The notes below the pieces were generated by a model that saw nothing but the letters and a program-made list of their open reading frames with translations, had not been told where the DNA came from and did not search any database. A program made the translations under genes and the position numbers. Shown here in pieces: positions 1 to 6,915 of a stretch of DNA of 6,915 bases. How positions within the stretch are numbered: the first letter of the stretch is position 1; every line of letters begins with the position of its first letter. Origin of the DNA: a virus. Taxonomy: Duplodnaviria; Heunggongvirae; Uroviricota; Caudoviricetes. The DNA is taken from the IMG/VR virus record IMGVR_UViG_2713896896_000002, positions 1 through 6,915 of that record, one strand, 5' to 3'.

Positions 1-99
1 ACGCCTCGGGCTGGCTACTTAACCCCTGACCACTGCCTGGTAACTCAAAGTATTGCCCTGCGTTCTGTGGGGCGGGGAGGGTTGGTATGAAATAAAGGA

Positions 100-136
100 T
101 ACCCATAGGTATTCAAAAAGTAAATACCCATGGGTA
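100..136. promoter_or_regulatory. OL-like operator pair: two 12-bp palindromes TACCCATAGGTA (100-111) and TACCCATGGGTA (125-136)
   Basis: Second site is a perfect palindrome and the first differs at one position. Centres are 25 bp apart and sit about 45 bp beyond the 3' end of the repressor gene. The same TACC-N4-GGTA motif recurs in the repressor/cro intergenic region. Confidence 0.6.
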
Positions 137-178
137 AAATTTTGGGGTGTCTTAACTGGTGGCTGGTTGTTTGGTGAG

Positions 179-598
179 TTATGACGCGTTTTGTGCTTTC
201 TTTTTACGGATTTCTTCGTAGATCATATTGTAATACTGTTTTTTCTCTTCAAGAGTTTTTAATAAGTTATCCGTTTCACTTTCTGGCAGTTCGTCTAAGA
301 GATCTAAAAAAATACGTTGTCGTGGCGTTAGAACCCTTGTTTCATAATTGGAGGCTGTGTTCGTTGATGATGAAACGATACCATCCATCCATCCCCGGGG
401 TAACCCAAAGGACTCTTCGATAATCTCCACCATATCATCAGCGATCCGTTTTTTTCCTTTTTTCCCCTCTGGGTACAACATTCTTGATACATAAGAAGGC
501 TCGCGACCGATCTTTCTGGCCACGTTAACCGCTTTACCATCGCATTTCTCATCACGAATTTTGATGAGTTGCTGTCGTCTAAATTCATATTTGTCCAT
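179..598 (-). CDS. Prophage immunity repressor, XRE/Cro-CI family HTH, short form (139 aa) with no S24 peptidase domain
   Basis: ORF 179-640 on the minus strand. The HTH pattern (RRQQLIKIRDEK..GKAVNVARKIGREPSYVSRM...FGLPRGWMDG) fits XRE-family spacing if translation starts at Met15 (ATG = complement of 596-598); the longer ORF would start at 640 inside an operator. No Ser/Lys autocleavage domain: the protein ends about 80 aa after the HTH. Divergent from a cro-like gene, as for RacR/YdaS. No obvious SD for either start. Confidence 0.75.
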   Translation of the reverse strand: MDKYEFRRQQLIKIRDEKCDGKAVNVARKIGREPSYVSRMLYPEGKKGKKRIADDMVEIIEESFGLPRGWMDGIVSSSTNTASNYETRVLTPRQRIFLDLLDELPESETDNLLKTLEEKKQYYNMIYEEIRKKKAQNAS

Positions 599-699
599 AG
601 GTAAATAATAGATGCGATTACCGCAAGGTAAACAACCCATAGGTATTGACTTTTGTTTACCTGTGGGTATTCTTGACCGTAGTTTACTAAGGAGTAGCC
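599..699. promoter_or_regulatory. OR-like divergent control region: operator sites TACCGCAAGGTA (619-630, degenerate), AACCCATAGGTA (634-645), TACCTGTGGGTA (658-669); rightward promoter -35 TTGACT (646-651), -10 TATTCT (668-673)
   Basis: Three copies of the TACC-N4-GGTA palindrome lie between the divergent repressor and cro-like genes. A sigma70-like -35/-10 pair with 16-bp spacer overlaps site 658-669, and an AAGGAG Shine-Dalgarno (689-694) precedes the cro ATG at 700. The leftward repressor promoter was not confidently located. Confidence 0.6.
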
Positions 700-981
700 A
701 TGGAAGAATTAAGAATATTTCTCAATTCTCTTTCGTCAGATGAACAGCGTATGTTTGCATGTGAGTGTGGTACTAGCATCGGTTATCTAAGAAAGGCATT
801 GAGTAAAGGTCAAGTGTTAGGGGCATCGTTATGTGTCCTTATTGAGCGAGCCAGTAATGGTGAAGTTACACGTCAGCAACTAAGGCCTTTTGATTGGATG
901 AATATTTGGCCCGAGCTGGAAGATACCAAAACGTTAACACAACCACTTTCCAGGAGCTTGATTCATGATAATCAAGCATGA
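700..981 (+). CDS. Cro-like / YdaS-family HTH regulator (93 aa)
   Basis: First rightward gene after the operators, with a good SD. Sequence features (FACECGTSIGYLRKA..., ERASNGEV, LRPFDW) resemble the YdaS/Cro-like family as I recall it. Its 3' end overlaps the next gene by 17 nt. Confidence 0.7.
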   Translation: MEELRIFLNSLSSDEQRMFACECGTSIGYLRKALSKGQVLGASLCVLIERASNGEVTRQQLRPFDWMNIWPELEDTKTLTQPLSRSLIHDNQA

Positions 982-1390
982 GCACATCCGCATGGTGATG
1001 AATGCCTGGGCGCATCCGGACGGTGAAAAAGTTCCGGCGGCTGAAATAACCCGGGCTTATTTTGAGCTGGGTATGACGTTCCCGGAATTATATGACGACA
1101 GCCATCCTGAAGCCCTGGCTCGCAATACTCAGAAAATTTTCCGCTGGGTGGAGAAAGACACCCCTGATGCGGTTAAAAAAATTCAGGCGTTGTTACCAGC
1201 GATCGAAAAGGCAATGCCGCCTCTGCTGGTGGCCCGAATGCGCAGTCACAGTTCAGCCTATTTTCGGGAGCTGCTGGAGACGCGGGAGCGGCTGGTGAGG
1301 GATGCAGATGATTTTATTGCGGTGGCAATTGCTGGTTTCAACCAGATTAATCGCGGTGGCCCGGCAGGAAATGCCGTGGTGATGCACTAA
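965..1390 (+). CDS. YdaT-like protein (cII-position regulator of Rac-like prophages), 141 aa
   Basis: N-terminus MIIKHEHI... and overall size match my recollection of E. coli Rac YdaT (about 140 aa, starting MKIKHEHI). SD AGGAG at 950-954. Position immediately after cro is typical of cII analogues. Confidence 0.65.
   Translation: MIIKHEHIRMVMNAWAHPDGEKVPAAEITRAYFELGMTFPELYDDSHPEALARNTQKIFRWVEKDTPDAVKKIQALLPAIEKAMPPLLVARMRSHSSAYFRELLETRERLVRDADDFIAVAIAGFNQINRGGPAGNAVVMH
1225..1232 (+). other. Chi site GCTGGTGG
   Basis: Exact octamer on the + strand; two more copies occur at 6339-6346 and 6396-6403. Confidence 0.7.
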
Positions 1391-1413
1391 AAGCACGGTG
1401 TTCGGGGTTTTTT

Positions 1414-2376
1414 ATGAGCAGCAAGCTTCATGGTCTTGTCTGGGAAGGGTGTGCCTTCACCGGCATGATCTTATCCAGGGTGGCAGTGATGGCTCGTCTT
1501 GCAGACTACAGCAATGATGAAGGTGTGTCATGGCCTGCAGTAGAGACCATTCGTCGTCAGATTGGGGCAAAGAGTGAATCAACGGTTAAAGCGGCGATAG
1601 CGGAACTGGAAAAAAGCGGCTGGCTGACAAAGGAAGAGCGTAAGGTTGGCGGACGTAACGTAAGCAATATCTACCGGCTTAATGTGGAAAAACTCGAAGC
1701 TGCAGCAGCGGCGGCGCGAGAGGCATATAAACCGAAAAGAAAAATTAGCCCGGCAAAAAATGACCCGTTAACGGTTGACCCGTCAAATATTGACCCCTCA
1801 ACGGTTGACCCGTCAAATTTTGATGGATCAACCGTTGATAAAAAACGGTCGGTTAGGGGGGCGATGATTGACCCCGATCCGTCAGTATTAAAATCTGATC
1901 CATCAGATAAAAGATCTTCTTGTCCGGACGCTTCGCAACCGGACCCGCAGACGGCTGAACAGGATTTTTTTACCCGACACCCTGATGCGGTTGTGTTCAG
2001 TGCGAAAAAACGCCAGTGGGGAAGTCAGGAAGATTTGGCGTGCGCACAGTGGATCTGGGGACGAATCGTGAGTCTTTACGAGCAGGCGGCCAGCGATGAT
2101 GGCGAGATCACGCGACCGAAAGAACCAAACTGGACCGCGTGGGCCAATGACGTGCGCACAATGCGGATGCTGGATGGCAGAACTCACAGACAAATTTGCG
2201 AAATGTTTGGGCGGGTACAGCGGGATCCATTCTGGGTAAAAAACATCATGAGCCCGTCAAAGCTCCGCGAAAAATGGGACGAACTGGTCATCCGCCTGGG
2301 GCGTTCACCTGTACAGCGTTGTGTGAATCATATTTCTGAACCGGACACCGAAATTCCTCCGGGGTTCAGGGGGTAA
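1414..2376 (+). CDS. Replication initiation protein (lambda O analogue) with N-terminal winged-helix DNA-binding domain and DnaT-like C-terminus
   Basis: 320-aa ORF. The N-terminal region (VSWPAVETIRRQIGAKSESTVKAAIAELEKSGWL) looks like a winged helix. The C-terminal SEPDTEIPPGFRG closely matches the C-terminal end of E. coli DnaT as I recall it. Internal iterons encode a repetitive DPSNIDPSTVDPSNFDGSTVD linker. The gene is directly followed by a dnaC homologue, mirroring the host dnaT-dnaC operon. No clear SD for the ATG at 1414. Confidence 0.8.
   Translation: MSSKLHGLVWEGCAFTGMILSRVAVMARLADYSNDEGVSWPAVETIRRQIGAKSESTVKAAIAELEKSGWLTKEERKVGGRNVSNIYRLNVEKLEAAAAAAREAYKPKRKISPAKNDPLTVDPSNIDPSTVDPSNFDGSTVDKKRSVRGAMIDPDPSVLKSDPSDKRSSCPDASQPDPQTAEQDFFTRHPDAVVFSAKKRQWGSQEDLACAQWIWGRIVSLYEQAASDDGEITRPKEPNWTAWANDVRTMRMLDGRTHRQICEMFGRVQRDPFWVKNIMSPSKLREKWDELVIRLGRSPVQRCVNHISEPDTEIPPGFRG
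1760..1831. repeat. Iteron array inside the replication gene: five copies of TTGAYNNNTCAA-type 12-mer at 15-bp periodicity
   Basis: Copies at 1760-1771 (degenerate), 1775-1786, 1790-1801, 1805-1816 and 1820-1831. There is an exact 19-bp direct repeat AACGGTTGACCCGTCAAAT at 1770-1788 and 1800-1818. Each unit is an inverted repeat, TTGAC-CC-GTCAA. Confidence 0.75.
1832..1920. other. Putative origin unwinding region: A/T-rich tract with clustered GATC sites adjacent to the iterons
   Basis: GATAAAAAACGG followed by GATCCGTCAGTATTAAAATCTGATCCATCAGATAAAAGATCTTCT. GATC at 1876-1879, 1897-1900 and 1913-1916, with a direct repeat GATCCRTCAG. The layout parallels the lambda origin lying inside gene O. 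Confidence 0.55.
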
Positions 2377-2382
2377 CGAACC

Positions 2383-3129
2383 ATGAAAAATATTGCGACA
2401 GGCGGCGTTCTGGAACGTATCCGCAGACTGACCCCGCCACATGTAACCGCCCCATTCAGAACGGTAGCGGAGTGGCGCGAGTGGCAACTTGCTGAAGGCC
2501 AGAAGCGTAGCGAGGAGATCAACCGCCTGAATCGCCAGTTGCGGGTGGAAAAAATTCTGAATCGCTCAGGCATCCAGCCGTTGCACCGTAAATGCTCGTT
2601 TGCGAATTACCATGTACAGAACGACGGCCAGCGATACGCGTTAAGTCAGGCGAAATCCATCGCTGATGAACTGATGACCGGATGCACAAATTTCGCGTTC
2701 AGCGGAAAACCTGGTACCGGAAAAAACCATCTGGCGGCGGCTATCGGGAATCGCCTGCTGAAAGACGGCCAGACAGTGATAGTGGTTACTGTGGCTGATG
2801 TTATGAGTGCCCTGCACGCCAGCTATGACGACGGGCAGTCAGGCGAAAAATTTTTGCGGGAACTGTGCGAAGTGGATCTGCTGGTTCTTGATGAAATTGG
2901 CATTCAGCGTGAGACGAAAAACGAGCAGGTGGTGCTGCATCAGATTGTTGATCGCCGGACAGCATCGATGCGCAGTATGGGGATGCTGACAAACCTGAAC
3001 TATGAGGCCATGAAAACGTTGCTCGGCGAGAGGATTATGGATCGCATGACCATGAACGGCGGGCGCTGGGTGACTTTTAACTGGGAAAGCTGGCGCCCGA
3101 ATGTCGTCCAGCCAGGAATCACGAAGTGA
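2383..3129 (+). CDS. DnaC-family helicase loader (lambda P-position replication protein), AAA+ ATPase
   Basis: Walker [18 protein letters not shown] and Walker [10 protein letters not shown]. Strong end-to-end resemblance to E. coli DnaC as recalled (N-terminal MKN..., RSGIQPLH, C-terminal [22 protein letters not shown]...[10 protein letters not shown]). SD AGGGGG 9 nt upstream of the ATG. Confidence 0.92.
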
Positions 3130-3151
3130 TTTTTACCGGGAGGAAATTTTA

Positions 3152-3913
3152 ATGGAGACTGTTTTTGACGCACTGAAAGCGATGGGAAAGGCCACATCCA
3201 TAGAACTTGCTGCGCGACTTGATATCAGTCGTGAAGAGGTACTGAATGAGCTGTGGGAACTGAAAAAATCTGGTTTCGTTGATAAAACCGCGTACACCTG
3301 GCGTGTGGCTGGTAGCAATGCTCAGCAGGAACAAGCATCCCGGGCTGAATTTCATGAAGAAACTACCACGGCAACAGTAGCGAAAATCTCAGAGTGCGAT
3401 TTAACGGCGACGATTGAACAACGCGGACCACAAACGGCTGATGAGCTGGCTACGCTGTTCGGTATCACATCACGCAAAGTGGCTTCAACGTTGGCTCAGG
3501 CAATCAGCAAAGGTCGCCTGATTCGCGTAAATCAGAACGGTAAATTTCGTTACTGCATGCCGGACGATAATTTACCAGCAGAGCCGAAAGCCGCATTGGT
3601 AACGGAAACAGATGGTAAAGCCTTTCCTCAGCCAGCAGGTGTTGCGTTACCAGCACAGGAAACTGTAACACAGGAAGAAATTAAAACAGAAACTGTGGCG
3701 GACATTGTGCAGTCGCTGCCATCGTTCACCGAAACGCGGGCGGATGACCTGATTTTACCATCGCTGCATCTGGCAAACCGCGAACTGCGCCGGGCGAAAA
3801 ATCATGTCCAGAAGTGGGAGCGCGTCTGCGCCGCGCTGCGGGAGCTGAATAAACACCGGGATATTGTCCGACAGATTGTCGATTCCTCCAGTCGCGTTGT
3901 GTCGGAAAGGTGA
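3152..3913 (+). CDS. Hypothetical phage protein with two winged-helix-like repeats and a charged, probably coiled-coil C-terminus (253 aa; possibly DUF1627-like)
   Basis: Start placed at ATG 3152 because of SD GGGAGG at 3138-3143; the track ORF from 3101 would overlap dnaC-like. Two similar HTH-like segments ([30 protein letters not shown] and [32 protein letters not shown]). The family name is a tentative recollection. Confidence 0.7.
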
Positions 3914-3920
3914 GGCACTT

Positions 3921-4337
3921 ATGAGAAACGTTTTTACACCTGAATATCGGGAGCAACTGAAGGCGCGTATTGTGGAACTGGTGCGCAGAGATGGGAGGAA
4001 AACACGTAAGCAACTGGAGGATGAAACCGGAGCAACGAGACACCTGATAGAAGTTCTGGCGAAAGAGCTGGTAGTTAGTGGCACGCTATATGGTTCAGGC
4101 CATGGAATATTTCCTTCAGAACAGGCTCGTAAGGACTGGATAAAAGCCTGCAAAAAAATGTCGAGAGCGGCAGTGAAAAAGAAGAGCGACCCTGACCTGA
4201 TTTATTCATTGCCAGATGGTGAAATACGCCGTTACAACAGGAGACAGAACATAATTTGCCGAGAGTGCCGTCAGAGCGAAACTATGCAGCGCGTGCTGGC
4301 TTTCTGGAAGGGAAGTTTGCAGGAGGTGGTACTGTGA
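3921..4337 (+). CDS. Hypothetical protein (138 aa), basic, with N-terminal HTH-like segment
   Basis: Start at ATG 3921 with SD AAGGTGAGG (3907-3915) 5 nt upstream; the track start 3864 lacks an SD and overlaps the upstream gene. Tightly linked to the preceding ORF (7-nt gap), suggesting co-translation in one operon. Confidence 0.65.
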   Translation: MRNVFTPEYREQLKARIVELVRRDGRKTRKQLEDETGATRHLIEVLAKELVVSGTLYGSGHGIFPSEQARKDWIKACKKMSRAAVKKKSDPDLIYSLPDGEIRRYNRRQNIICRECRQSETMQRVLAFWKGSLQEVVL

Positions 4338-4464
4338 GCCAAATTAACAATCAGGACTGCGTGAAGTGAAAGAGAAAACATAATTCAAATCTGAATAATT
4401 AATCTCAGCACTGTAAATAAAATTTAATCCTTAACAGGAGGGATTCCTGCACCCTCAAAACATC

Positions 4465-4498
4465 AGGAGGCCGCCCGAAAGGGCGGTAATGAAAAATG
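4465..4498 (+). promoter_or_regulatory. Structured translation-initiation leader: SD AGGAGG (4465-4470), hairpin CCGCCC-GAAA-GGGCGG (4471-4486), start ATG 4496
   Basis: Perfect 6-bp GC stem with GAAA tetraloop sits exactly between a consensus SD and the start codon. Linear spacing is 25 nt, but about 9 nt if the hairpin is formed. A second weaker hairpin GAGGG-N9-CCCTC lies at 4438-4456. Confidence 0.5.
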
Positions 4499-4903
4499 AC
4501 TGAATTAACAAAAGAGCAATTAATCGAAGAAGCTAAATTAAAAATAGCGATTGCGAAATGCCACCCCAATTCAGGGGTGGCACGAGTAGAGGGTGAGTTA
4601 TTCAAAATTGCTCTGGCATCGCTGGAAGCAGAGCCGATAGCGTGGGAATACGGCGAAAACATAATCCTGTTTAATCCTGACACAGTTGAAGCATACGCAA
4701 AACGTGCAGAGATAACACCTAAACCTCTATTCACCGCTACACCTGTGTCACTGACACCAGAAGGATTGATTAAAGCAGTGCGTTTCTATGAACAGGTTAA
4801 GCGTGAAAATCCGCCAGTCGAAACCGGAGCATGGAAAGACGCGGTTGACTGGGTGCTCAAAGAGGCCTGTCGTGCAGCCATGCTTAAGGGAGATAAATCA
4901 TGA
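4496..4903 (+). CDS. Hypothetical protein (135 aa)
   Basis: Clean ORF. Its stop overlaps the next start in an ATGA arrangement (4900-4903). Preceded by a 158-bp AT-rich intergenic region and the structured leader. No family recognised. Confidence 0.65.
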   Translation: MTELTKEQLIEEAKLKIAIAKCHPNSGVARVEGELFKIALASLEAEPIAWEYGENIILFNPDTVEAYAKRAEITPKPLFTATPVSLTPEGLIKAVRFYEQVKRENPPVETGAWKDAVDWVLKEACRAAMLKGDKS

Positions 4904-5247
4904 TTAATCGAACCAAACTGGAGCACATCCTTGAGTATGCCTGGCAGCAGAGGCATTTGGGTCAGCACTGTAAAATTCCACCAGGAGATATGGTTGAAAT
5001 CGTGGAGATTGCCATGCGTAAGACTGGCAACTCTCCGGTAACTTCGGGCGGTTGGATAAGCTGTAGTGAGCGAATGCCAGGTGATGGTCAGCACGTAATT
5101 ATTTTATGTGATGGCGCATTCGTTCTTCATGCGCAATATCGAGACGGTGAGTTTTTCGATATTGTCCGCAATGGTAATGAATTTTTTGAAACACAGAGCC
5201 GCAATGTAACCGACTGGATGCCGCTACCAGAACCACGAAGGAGGTGA
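4900..5247 (+). CDS. DUF551-like phage protein (115 aa)
   Basis: C-terminal pattern GGWISCSERMPGDGQHVIILC...DGEFFDIV...VTDWMPLPEP matches my recollection of the DUF551 signature (W..P....V.....g....DWMPLPEP). Start overlaps the upstream stop, suggesting translational coupling. Confidence 0.65.
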   Translation: MINRTKLEHILEYAWQQRHLGQHCKIPPGDMVEIVEIAMRKTGNSPVTSGGWISCSERMPGDGQHVIILCDGAFVLHAQYRDGEFFDIVRNGNEFFETQSRNVTDWMPLPEPRRR

Positions 5248-5251
5248 ATCA

Positions 5252-5323
5252 ATGAGCTGGCCTGAGGCATTCACAACAGTAGGTATTGTACTGGCGGTGT
5301 ATTCGATTTGCCGCTGGGGGTAA
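5252..5323 (+). CDS. Small ORF, 23 aa, predicted single-pass hydrophobic peptide (MSWPEAFTTVGIVLAVYSICRWG)
   Basis: Not in the ORF track. Near-perfect SD AAGGAGGTGA (5238-5247) with 7-nt spacing to ATG 5252; stop TAA 5321-5323. It sits directly after the DUF551 gene in the same orientation. Confidence 0.5.
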   Translation: MSWPEAFTTVGIVLAVYSICRWG

Positions 5324-5329
5324 GGTATT

Positions 5330-5373
5330 AAAAAACGCCCCGCACACATAAGTTGGGCGCCTGAGATGCGGGG
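5330..5373 (-). terminator. Putative intrinsic terminator oriented for leftward (minus-strand) transcription
   Basis: 7-bp GC-rich stem CCCCGCA (5338-5344) / TGCGGGG (5367-5373). On the minus strand the stem is followed by CG then TTTTTT (complement of A-run 5330-5335). The loop is long (22 nt) and may fold further. There is no T-run after it on the plus strand. Confidence 0.4.
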
Positions 5374-5484
5374 ATAGGGAGTTGGTTAAATAGTTATACA
5401 ACAATACTTGATTTTGCATTGAAGCAAGGAGGAGATTGCCACATATTGAATCATGCACGTGTACGTCAAATGTGGGAGGTCATC

Positions 5485-5574
5485 GTGCTGGTTCTGAAAT
5501 GTGCGCTGGCTATTGCGGCTGTAATGGCAATTTATTGTCTTGTTATTGTTCTTATGAATCACCTCTCTGATTGA
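5485..5574 (+). CDS. Small ORF, 29 aa, very hydrophobic peptide (MLVLKCALAIAAVMAIYCLVIVLMNHLSD); candidate small membrane toxin-like peptide
   Basis: Not in the ORF track. SD GGGAGG (5474-5479) is 5 nt upstream of GTG 5485; an in-frame ATG at 5470 without SD would give 34 aa. Stop TGA 5572-5574. Composition resembles type I toxin peptides (single TM helix, short polar tail). Confidence 0.45.
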   Translation: MLVLKCALAIAAVMAIYCLVIVLMNHLSD

Positions 5575-5581
5575 TTTTATA

Positions 5582-5610
5582 TTGGCGAGGTGACGTGAGT
5601 TAAGTAGAAT
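5582..5610 (+). promoter_or_regulatory. Putative hok mRNA promoter: -35 TTGGCG (5582-5587), 17-bp spacer, -10 TAGAAT (5605-5610)
   Basis: Sigma70-like elements positioned so that transcription would start near 5617, at the GGGTGCTTGAGGC element typical of hok-family mRNA 5' ends. Confidence 0.5.
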
Positions 5611-5659
5611 TGCTGCGGGTGCTTGAGGCTATCTGTCTCAGGCATGAACACCAAAAGGC

Positions 5660-5750
5660 AGATAGAGAAAAGCCCCAGTTAACATTACGCGTCTTGCAGG
5701 ACGCTTAACATTAATCTGAGGCTCAATCCATGCTGAACACATGTAGGTTA
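5660..5750 (-). ncRNA. Expected position of a Sok-like antisense RNA overlapping the hok leader / mok-like start (boundaries not resolved)
   Basis: Inferred from the hok-family architecture. Candidate minus-strand promoter: -35 TTGCCT (complement of 5768-5773), -10 TAACCT (complement of 5745-5750). I could not identify a clean terminator, so the extent is approximate. Confidence 0.3.
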
Positions 5751-5786
5751 GCCTCTTACGTGCCGAAAGGCAAGGAGAAGCAGGCT

Positions 5787-5942
5787 ATGAAGCAGCAAAA
5801 GGCGATGTTAGTCGCCCTGATCGTCATCTGTTTAACCGTCATTGTTACGGCACTGGTAACGAGGAAAGACCTCTGCGAGGTACGAATCCGAACCGGTCAG
5901 ACGGAGGTCGCTGTCTTCACAGCTTACGAACCTGAGGAGTAA
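5787..5942 (+). CDS. hokD: Hok/Gef-family type I toxin (51 aa), closest in my recollection to HokD (RelF)
   Basis: MKQQKAMLVALIVICLTVIVTALVTRKDLCEVRIRTGQTEVAVFTAYEPEE carries the Hok signature (TM helix then RKDLCEVRIRTGQTEVAVFTAYE). SD AAGGAGAAG at 5772-5780. An in-frame upstream ATG at 5730 (track ORF 5730-5942) may play a mok-like coupling role. Confidence 0.85.
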   Translation: MKQQKAMLVALIVICLTVIVTALVTRKDLCEVRIRTGQTEVAVFTAYEPEE

Positions 5943-5950
5943 GAGACCAG

Positions 5951-6005
5951 GCGAGGGAGAAATCCCTCGCCACCTCTGATGAGTCAGGCATCCTCAACGC
6001 ACCCG
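5951..6005 (+). other. hok mRNA 3' structures: hairpin GCGAGGGA-GAAA-TCCCTCGC (5951-5970) and fbi-like element CCTCAACGCACCC (5993-6005) complementary to the mRNA 5' end (5617-5628)
   Basis: The 3' element is the reverse complement of GGGTGCTTGAGG at the predicted 5' end, with one bulged base. This is the hallmark 5'-3' closure of full-length hok mRNAs. The hairpin is a perfect 8-bp stem with GAAA loop. Confidence 0.6.
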
Positions 6006-6296
6006 CACTTACAACCGATGGCGCACGATACCAAATTATACAATTCTGATGATTCTGCCGTCTTTGCCAGCAGGCGCGGACGGTGTTTTCACGCATTCAA
6101 ATCTGACTGGTACCAGCATCCCCCATGCACTGAAGAACAGGCCGAATGGATAATTCAGTGTTACCGCAGGCGCGGATGCGAGGTTAAAAAAGCCCTTAGC
6201 CTCGACTACCGTCACTGGATAATCTCCGTCAGGCTCCCTTACTCCGAACGGCCGCCGCGTCCGTCCCGCACATTCCAGCAACGGATCTGGAGGTAA
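5979..6296 (+). CDS. Hypothetical protein, possibly Rem-like (Qin-prophage position between hokD and ydfU); 105 aa, or 92 aa from ATG 6018
   Basis: ORF with plausible protein-like composition (FKSDWYQHPPCTEEQAEWIIQCYRRRGCEVKK). Gene order matches hokD-rem-ydfU as I recall for E. coli K-12 Qin. No SD for either candidate start; the 5979 start would lie inside the hok mRNA 3' end. Confidence 0.5.
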   Translation: MSQASSTHPHLQPMAHDTKLYNSDDSAVFASRRGRCFHAFKSDWYQHPPCTEEQAEWIIQCYRRRGCEVKKALSLDYRHWIISVRLPYSERPPRPSRTFQQRIWR

Positions 6297-6297
6297 C

Positions 6298-6915
6298 GTG
6301 CGGGTATTACTTCGACCTGTTCTGGTACCGGAACTCGGGCTGGTGGTCCTTAAGCCTGGTCGTGAATCCATGCAGGTATTTCATAATCCTCGAGTGCTGG
6401 TGGAGCCGGAACCGAAAAGCATGCGCAGTCTGCCGTCAGGAGCTGTTCCTGCCGTTCGCCAGCCGCTCGTGGAAGATAAATCATTACTGCCATTTTTCAG
6501 CGATGAGCGGGCGATTCGTGCTGCTGGCGGCGCTGGCGCATTGTCTGACTGGCTCCTGCGTCATGTTAAATCCTGCCAGTGGCCTCATGGTGACTATCAC
6601 CACAGCGAAACCGTCATACATCGTTACGGTACCGGCGCGATGGTGTTGTGCTGGCACTGTGACAACCAGCTGCGCGACCAGACATCAGAGTCACTCGGGC
6701 AACTTGCTCAACAAAACTTGTCAGCATGGATGATTGACGTCATCCGTCACGCAATGAATGGCACACAGGAGCGGGAATTATCGCTGGCTGAATTATCCTG
6801 GTGGGCGGTCCGCAATCAGGTGGCGGACGCGCTACCGGAAGTGGTATTACGTCGTTCGCTGGGGTTGCGTGCGGAAAAAATCCGCTCAATGTACCGTGAA
6901 AGCGACATCGTACCG
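6298..6915 (+). CDS. DUF968/YdfU-like prophage protein, 5' portion (continues beyond window end)
   Basis: Open frame from GTG 6298 to the window edge (206 codons, no stop). SD GGAGG at 6289-6293. The GTG lies 1 nt after the upstream stop TAA (6294-6296). Cys/His-rich segment CQWPHGDYHHSETVIHRYGTGAMVLCWHCDNQ. The track ORF 6362-6733 is in another frame and looks spurious. Alternative start ATG 6370. Confidence 0.65.
   Translation, partial: MRVLLRPVLVPELGLVVLKPGRESMQVFHNPRVLVEPEPKSMRSLPSGAVPAVRQPLVEDKSLLPFFSDERAIRAAGGAGALSDWLLRHVKSCQWPHGDYHHSETVIHRYGTGAMVLCWHCDNQLRDQTSESLGQLAQQNLSAWMIDVIRHAMNGTQERELSLAELSWWAVRNQVADALPEVVLRRSLGLRAEKIRSMYRESDIVP
6339..6403 (+). other. Two Chi sites (GCTGGTGG) 57 bp apart at 6339-6346 and 6396-6403
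   Basis: Exact octamers in the same orientation as the site at 1225. Confidence 0.7.

Follow-up and report, generated by a model that had tools for sequence, protein, structure and literature searches.

The window analysed here, the 6915-nucleotide stretch at positions 1–6915 of IMG/VR record IMGVR_UViG_2713896896_000002, contains a small open reading frame (ORF) of 23 codons plus TAA on the plus strand at 5252–5323, with the predicted product MSWPEAFTTVGIVLAVYSICRWG. The ATG occupies 5252–5254 and the TAA stop 5321–5323. The ORF is preceded by the Shine–Dalgarno sequence (SD) AAGGAGGTGA at 5238–5247 (plus strand), the last three bases of which (TGA, 5245–5247) are the stop codon of a gene encoding a 115-residue DUF551-domain protein of the Ea22/EaA type (4900–5247, plus strand; Pfam PF04448, E 1.2e-17). 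The GGAGG core of the SD lies at 5240–5244, 7 nt (tgaatca) from the ATG, and 4 nt separate the complete 10-mer AAGGAGGTGA from the ATG; the sequence around the start reads ...CCACGAAGGAGGTGAATCAATGAGC.... The SD, the 7 nt spacing, the start codon and the 23-codon frame had been described in a first-pass annotation of the window and were all confirmed at these positions.

The same annotation had rated the translation signal as very strong, and the counts agree with this. The SD is a consensus sequence, the pattern AGGAGGT-N3-8-ATG occurs once in the 6915 nt against 0.07 occurrences expected from shuffled sequences, and the exact 10-mer is also found only once. The 23-codon length by itself is unremarkable, with 22 ORFs of at least 20 residues overlapping positions 4800–5800; the small ORF stands above chance because of the SD and the comparative evidence, not because of its length. 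RNA folding of 5205–5335 gave −32.2 kcal/mol (z +0.44 against shuffles), the start region being not unusually structured. No promoter-like site was found near 5238–5323 on either strand using simple scans, which weak promoters may escape. An Rfam scan gave no match within 5238–5323, its only match being the separate sok locus.

Relatives of the small ORF and selection on their product

Relatives of the small ORF normally encode 27 residues, with the consensus MTWPEAFTTVGIAMAVALVVYSICRWG and the pattern M-[TSN]-W-P-[ED]-A-F...V-G-x-x-x-[AS]...Y-S-I-C-R-W-G. The blastn matches to the region start at the SD or the ATG and stop exactly at the small-ORF stop codon. The window product carries the N-terminal family motif M-x-W-P-[ED]-A-[FL] as MSWPEAF and the C-terminal motif [YF]-[SA]-[ILV]-[CF]-R-W-[GRW] plus stop as YSICRWG-TAA. 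G11 with a small residue at 15 in the apolar run is kept in the window product and in every variant, and the variant of phage SJ46 is the sole one without the C-terminal Arg. The family length of 27 codons and its apolar run of 19 residues are replaced in the window by 23 codons and 15 residues.

Unannotated 27-codon homologues are present in phage 933W (between L0139 and sokW/mokW; AF125520.1 58826–58909, complement), upstream of hokD in E. coli NCTC86 and strain P4, and in the lytic Vequintavirinae phages TH18 and Av-05. Further unannotated homologues were found in the xis-int-proximal early region of YYZ-2008 and Stx2a_WGPS2, in vB_EcoS-666R9 and ArgO145, and in P1-like phage-plasmids of Escherichia and Salmonella. 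A near-full-length copy is carried by 1633 of 5426 complete E. coli genomes (~30%; 3110 places, at most seven per genome). Copies also occur in 95 phage records by tblastn (including Stx phages such as 933W, lytic Vequintavirinae and P1-like phages), in 180 plasmids (all three inspected being IncY) and in at least 526 IMG/VR contigs. Lambda is not among the tblastn matches listed, 35 of the 95 phage records standing outside that list. The CPS-53, Rac and Qin regions of K-12 have no homologue, and K-12 initiation-profiling data for these regions would therefore not have shown it.

Species-representative genomes were scanned using a strict pattern, by which distant relatives were possibly missed; the small ORF was found in Escherichia and Shigella only, plus two tiny contigs elsewhere. 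These contigs, from Acinetobacter idrijaensis (L012, 369 bp) and Xanthomonas pisi (L013, 431 bp), have P1-like and 933W-like copies, and the Xanthomonas contig also has hok. Both are probably E. coli or phage contamination of the assemblies.

The suggestion that the gene had been overlooked proved correct: the small ORF is unannotated in most phage records and, bar an occasional 45-residue N-extended call, at the places examined in RefSeq. The 27-residue product is sporadically annotated as 'prophage protein', 'bacteriophage protein' or hypothetical protein. The entries from E. coli 042 ('putative prophage protein'), O111 strain CVM9545 and FORC28_2400 are identical to 27-residue relatives found here and bear no function, family name or domain. 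They are separated from the window product by a four-residue deletion and two to three substitutions, and the 23-residue allele is not among them. Searches of Pfam, NCBIfam, PHROG (including the 45–52-residue N-extended forms), PADLOC and PDB gave no match, only sub-threshold scores driven by composition: 12.5 bits (E 0.12) against a cut-off of 26.85 for KdpF (TIGR02115), 14.5 bits against a cut-off of 27 for DUF883_C (PF19029), PHROG matches all with E of at least 0.0035, and none in PADLOC or PDB.

No paper describing the family was found, and the motif YSICRW matched no paper in a literature search. The main text of an Enterobacteriaceae microproteome preprint has no mention of prophage, hok or DUF551. 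Term searches of the paper on the nuclear magnetic resonance structure of Ea22 (PMC10834534) and of a review of the exo-xis region (PMC8614690) returned no membrane ORF after Ea22. DUF551 is part of the V2 variant of Ea22 found in Stx phages (PMC10834534), and the exo-xis/Ea22 region of lambda and Stx phages (PMC10834534, PMC8614690) is the same early, non-essential accessory region as that in which the small ORF follows Ea22-like or DUF551-type genes.

The selection analysis was performed on 30 distinct nucleotide versions of the small ORF. The ratio of non-synonymous to synonymous variation per site (pN/pS) was 0.21 in the small-ORF frame compared with 1.3 and 1.8 in the other two forward frames, which are closed by stops in all sequences. 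A parsimony count on a neighbour-joining tree of the 30 sequences gave 80 synonymous and 54 non-synonymous changes (binomial p 9e-18, recombination being ignored); as only 25% of the sites are synonymous, this corresponds to an omega of ~0.22. M1, W3, P4 and W26 are invariant across the 30 sequences, G11 shows seven synonymous and no non-synonymous changes, and amino-acid replacements are nearly all within V/I/L/A/F/M or within T/S/N/A. Length variants of 23, 24 and 27 residues occur, all of the insertions and deletions being in frame, and the ORF is intact in 93 of 95 loci. Amino-acid-level conservation in related prophages had been set beforehand as the test of the gene, and the test was passed, the low omega being confined to the small-ORF frame and the indels keeping that frame. 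Judged from the aligned copies, the amino-acid sequence is under purifying selection, and the forward ORF is very probably a real gene.

Organization of the module and the window allele

Among 93 loci, 90 have the small-ORF start and the stop codon of the gene before it merged into an ATGA; this and the other fractions of the 93 loci are only indicative because the sample is redundant. At least four unrelated upstream C-termini occur among these loci, namely ...PLPEPPQEVNQ (DUF551), ...RNGLISVEDILR, ...NDLKNIEQKVNQ (933W L0139) and ...RAAMLKKKGMNQ (Vequintavirinae EaA). Three of the four have the nucleotides GAATCAATGA in common; the mobile module thus carries its own translation-initiation region and so dictates the last codons of the upstream gene. 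At the SD position the relatives have CAGGAGGTGAATCAATGA or GGAGGAT-N8-ATGA. The preceding genes are Ea22-like or DUF551-type genes of early operons.

In the window the start is arranged as TGA-atca-ATG, abutting the upstream stop and not overlapping it as ATGA; this was still counted with the start/stop overlap of the family. The arrangement stems from a 1 nt difference in the DUF551 gene, owing to which its C-terminus (5230–5247) reads ...PLPEPRRR* in place of the family norm ...PLPEPPQEVNQ* seen across loci. As a result the stop lies 4 nt upstream of the small-ORF ATG and CAGGAGGTGA becomes the perfect AAGGAGGTGA.

Downstream, hok is found within 450 nt in 67 of the 93 sampled loci, and in several other contexts the next gene begins 3–8 nt after the small-ORF stop. 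The downstream neighbours vary (the hok promoter, DUF4222, an ea22-like gene or convergent genes). A regulatory leader peptide or upstream ORF was considered and rejected, as there is no fixed downstream gene and the peptide is under purifying selection. Since the family is also found without hok, it is not a hok promoter element. On the evidence of these alignments the gene moves as a module, its left edge being its own ribosome-binding site and its right edge the stop codon, and it is portable among lambdoid, P1-like and Vequintavirinae phages. In translation it is linked to the early accessory genes that precede it.

Compared with ...ATG GCG GTG GCG CTG GTG GTG TAT... in the relatives, the window allele has lost 12 nt flanked by GGTG repeats and with them the residues V-A-L-V. 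Every other copy seen encodes 27 residues, except for 24 in phage SJ46, and the window copy was filed as a deletion allele of the family because its 12 nt deletion is in frame and leaves fewer than 27 codons. Two full-length megablast matches are 79.8% identical over 104 nt, a span which implies that they include the extra 12 nt. The allele keeps G11xxxA15, the YSICRWG end and both tryptophans, W3 to W22 spanning 20 residues; as four residues make about one helical turn, the conserved ends stay roughly in phase. The shortened allele may still be active.

Damaged copies of the ORF were seen elsewhere. That of Shigella phage POCJ13 (L008 1201-1284) has decayed through a change of TGG to TAG at codon 3 (W3), and that of an IMG/VR contig (L053 1501-1620) is altered, the stop having been lost and a 39-residue product resulting.

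Proposed membrane role and alternative explanations

The family has a grand average of hydropathy (GRAVY) of 0.86–1.7 and a single apolar run, and every variant keeps this hydropathy. We favour, with some reserve, the interpretation that the small ORF is a coding gene of the phage early operon and that its product is an inner-membrane microprotein which crosses the membrane once, is translated in coupling with the upstream gene and acts by helix packing with a membrane partner. The role as a regulator or toxin of membrane complexes raised in the first-pass annotation is a prediction. Ribosomes finishing the early gene upstream would translate the small ORF by coupling or re-initiation, aided by the strong SD. 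Its expression would fall in early lytic transcription, in the window on the rightward early transcript that comes from the cro side and crosses the replication genes. The peptide is predicted to span the inner membrane with one helix, its acidic N-terminus (E5) facing out, its basic C-terminus (R21 in the window, R25 in the 27-residue form) facing in and a Trp lying near each membrane interface. Its invariant small-xxx-small face, G11xxxA15, may pack against a further transmembrane helix, contributed by a membrane protein of the host or the phage or by a second copy of the peptide. General phage biology offers as candidate partners host membrane proteins of DNA entry or exclusion, division, proteolysis and transport, or membrane toxins.

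KdpF, AcrZ, MgtS and CydX are small single-pass E. coli inner-membrane proteins that modulate larger membrane proteins. The family resembles this class in its size (20–50 residues), one hydrophobic helix, strong SD, frequent co-transcription and helix–helix action (the last as proposed here). It differs in having no sequence relationship to these proteins and in being phage-borne and mobile between phage types.

Several points weigh against the proposed role. The helix-packing mechanism is drawn from one conserved motif, the parsimony test uses a neighbour-joining tree and ignores recombination, and the peptide motifs were unmatched in the supplements of one ribosome-profiling paper on small genes of O157:H7 Sakai. 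One antisense frame has a pN/pS of 0.25. This is the expected by-product of wobble positions that coincide with those of the forward frame, and that frame contains stops in two of 28 sequences. Across the antisense frames, stops interrupt 2, 8 and 21 of the 28 sequences and neither end is conserved; an antisense gene as the source of the conservation was rejected on these grounds. The remaining points concern the window copy. None of the 5426 complete E. coli genomes yielded the 23-residue allele, and its product is absent from a collection of 15 billion proteins which holds five of the eight 27-residue variants looked up. Its apolar uncharged run comprises 15 residues (AFTTVGIVLAVYSIC) compared with 19 in the 27-residue relatives. 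The single hydrophobic helix proposed in the first-pass annotation is upheld as an interpretation; in the window the run falls short of canonical transmembrane length. The summed Hessa-scale value is +0.39 for the window allele, the least favourable of all variants, and −0.6 to −2.7 for most relatives.

The absence of the allele from genomes and proteins means that it could be a decaying copy. The family would then be real and the window copy a non-functional relic, the 12 nt deletion having over-shortened the helix and the C-terminus of DUF551 having been frameshifted. Such a relic would account for the missing allele, for the 15-residue run with the worst insertion score among the variants and for an upstream gene that ends ...PEPRRR* instead of ...PEPPQEVNQ*, and decayed copies do exist (the W3 stop of POCJ13, the lost stop of L053). 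Against it, the deletion is in frame and the ATG, the perfect SD AAGGAGGTGA, G11xxxA15 and YSICRWG are intact; W3 to W22 still spans 20 residues, a natural variant of 24 residues exists in phage SJ46, and the neighbouring hok and mok genes are intact. We consider a relic possible but unlikely.

A peptide that damages the membrane (type I-toxin-like, holin-like or depolarizing) and does not regulate another protein appears improbable. The toxins of the TisB, Ibs, ShoB and DinQ class are similar to the small peptide in size and hydrophobicity, and with the type I class as a whole (Hok, Ldr, Ibs, TisB, ShoB, DinQ, ZorO) it shares the character of a small hydrophobic membrane peptide. It adjoins hok/sok in 67 of the 93 sampled loci, and the N-extended form has a weak PHROG holin match (phrog_785, E 0.067). 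The Hok/Gef toxin of the adjacent hok/sok is likewise a small hydrophobic membrane peptide, physically linked to the small ORF in many prophages; its sequence is unrelated, however, and the small ORF is without antisense RNA, fold-back mRNA or a mok-like leader, has an open SD and also occurs without hok. Other marks of type I toxins are missing too: simple scans showed no antisense or divergent small RNA with its own promoter, and no mRNA structure hides the SD. Type I toxins are typically held under tight translational repression, the reverse of a strong, open SD coupled to an upstream gene; the RNA of the start region folds no better than shuffles (z +0.44), and there is neither a promoter-like site near the ORF on either strand nor an Rfam match. 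In YYZ-2008, P1-like and Vequintavirinae phages the position is well inside tight operons, and no lysis-cassette context was seen.

Still less can be said for the view that only the act of translation matters and that the ORF, with a functionless peptide, is a coupling or spacer device carrying ribosomes past the upstream gene for Rho protection or to feed the next gene. The nearly universal ATGA overlap and the next gene lying 3–8 nt past the stop in several contexts would suit such a device. The purifying selection on the peptide, with invariant W3, P4, G11 and W26 and otherwise conservative replacements, is not expected of a pure spacer, and in hok contexts the small ORF is the last gene before an independent promoter.

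That there is no separate gene, the ORF being a frameshifted C-terminal membrane tail of a DUF551/Ea22-like protein or reflecting conservation at the DNA level or of an antisense gene such as 'ORF C38', would fit the frame being open for ~18 codons upstream in DUF551 contexts, the 45-residue N-extended form sometimes called by PGAP, the antisense ORF annotated in NC_004914 and the pN/pS of 0.25 in the coincident-wobble antisense frame, but is hardly credible given that the ATG never varies, the SD lies at the proper distance in all contexts including unrelated upstream genes, homology between contexts runs from the SD/ATG to the stop, no fusion protein is found among cluster members, and the antisense frames are interrupted by stops and have unconserved ends.

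The interpretation as a coupled inner-membrane microprotein can be extended, although we attach very little probability to the extension: the peptide might be a phage counter-measure that neutralizes membrane suicide toxins such as Hok by helix–helix contact. This would explain the frequent hok/sok linkage in prophages together with the presence of the gene in lytic Vequintavirinae and P1-like phage-plasmids. On this view, Vequintavirinae and P1-like phages lacking such a counter-measure would trigger Hok-type abortive infection of the host on shutting off host transcription. The idea is drawn from the hok linkage, the phage distribution and the conserved packing motif.

The gene family is widespread, mostly unannotated and clearly under selection, and it is familiar in kind, belonging with the small membrane proteins of phages and prophages. 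It is a clean example of a known annotation blind spot for small hydrophobic proteins, opens no long-standing question and will not surprise specialists. Of the complete E. coli genomes ~30% carry the gene, frequently more than once; it is also present in the reference Stx phage 933W, and the family extends to P1-like phage-plasmids and to lytic phages considered for therapy; one hidden Markov model added to annotation pipelines could recover thousands of genes. On account of the purifying selection, the fixed helix-packing motif and the fixed coupling to early accessory genes, the peptide is a candidate for a phage factor that contacts a membrane protein of the host, whether during infection, in exclusion or in the lysis–lysogeny decision.

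Neighbouring features of the window

The ORFs of the window mark it as the early-right part of a lambdoid prophage. They comprise a repressor-like gene on the minus strand (179–640), cro/cII-like ORFs, a replication initiator-like ORF (1414–2376), a DnaC-like ORF (2383–3129) and, ahead of the DUF551 gene, an Ea22/EaA-type early accessory gene (4496–4903). Downstream of the small ORF lies a hok/sok locus (5617–5942, plus strand). It consists of sok (5617–5792; Rfam RF01794, 118.9 bits) and intact mok (5730–5942, plus strand) and hok (5787–5942, plus strand; relatives annotated hokD) from the ORF list, and a promoter scan placed a promoter-like site for hok (TTGGCG-17-TAGAAT) in front of it at 5582–5610 on the plus strand. 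The distance from the small-ORF stop to this site is 259 nt in the window compared with ~10 nt in 933W-type loci. The nearest DNA matches to the region are E. coli prophages at 91–94% identity; no complete genome covered 80% or more of the 1.7 kb query, and the region is therefore a mosaic.

Some annotated frames in related loci were also reconsidered. The N-terminal extension of the 45–52-residue forms called by PGAP (METVTLDAATRTAAGGES-M...) and the N-terminus of 933W L0139 (VDNSWCVVETVTLDAATRTAAGGE...; L001 1047-1517) are out-of-frame readings of the DUF551 C-terminus, and the annotated starts of both are doubtful. In Stx2 phage II (NC_004914.3; L095 201-950) a 249-residue antisense 'ORF C38' is annotated, with its equivalent at L001 1014-1763 in 933W. 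It runs opposite L0139, the small ORF and the hok leader, overlapping several better-supported features, and is most likely an over-annotation. Clusters at 90% identity mix the 27-residue peptide with DUF551 proteins of 121–185 residues. A DUF551 fusion was rejected, as the sequences show none: the 121–185-residue representatives do not contain the 27-residue peptide, and cluster names can mislead. The clustering appears to be a linkage artefact created by incomplete entries from the ends of contigs.

A second small hydrophobic ORF lies directly upstream of the hok promoter at 5485–5574 (plus strand). It has a GTG start, encodes 29 residues (fM-LVLKCALAIAAVMAIYCLVIVLMNHLSD) and is preceded by the SD GGGAGG at 5474–5479. 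The region 5414–5616 matches ~2600 of the 5426 E. coli genomes at 83–87% identity and is unannotated at nearly all of the places listed, the ORF being occasionally called as a 29-residue hypothetical protein. ATCC 25922 and Z0117EC0054 are homologous from a point shortly ahead of the GTG, where they also have an AGGAGGT SD; farther upstream their sequence is divergent and contains stop codons. Four synonymous and four non-synonymous differences separate the window from ATCC 25922 (counted by hand), and the evidence that these comparisons give for coding is weaker than that for the 23-codon ORF.

Loci of the 933W type lack the ~290 nt that separate the small ORF from the hok promoter; at full length this stretch is present in just 25 complete genomes, strain P4 among them. 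In its first part (5324–5413 and, on the minus strand, 5327–5375) it contains a minus-strand terminator-like hairpin CCCCGCA...TGCGGGGCGTTTTTT, which closes the computed fold, and a minus-strand promoter-like site runs from 5603 to 5574. With this site and the hairpin, an RNA of ~240 nt could be produced opposite the second small ORF, in a layout resembling that of type I toxin–antitoxin systems; the fold is no more stable than usual (z −1.5).

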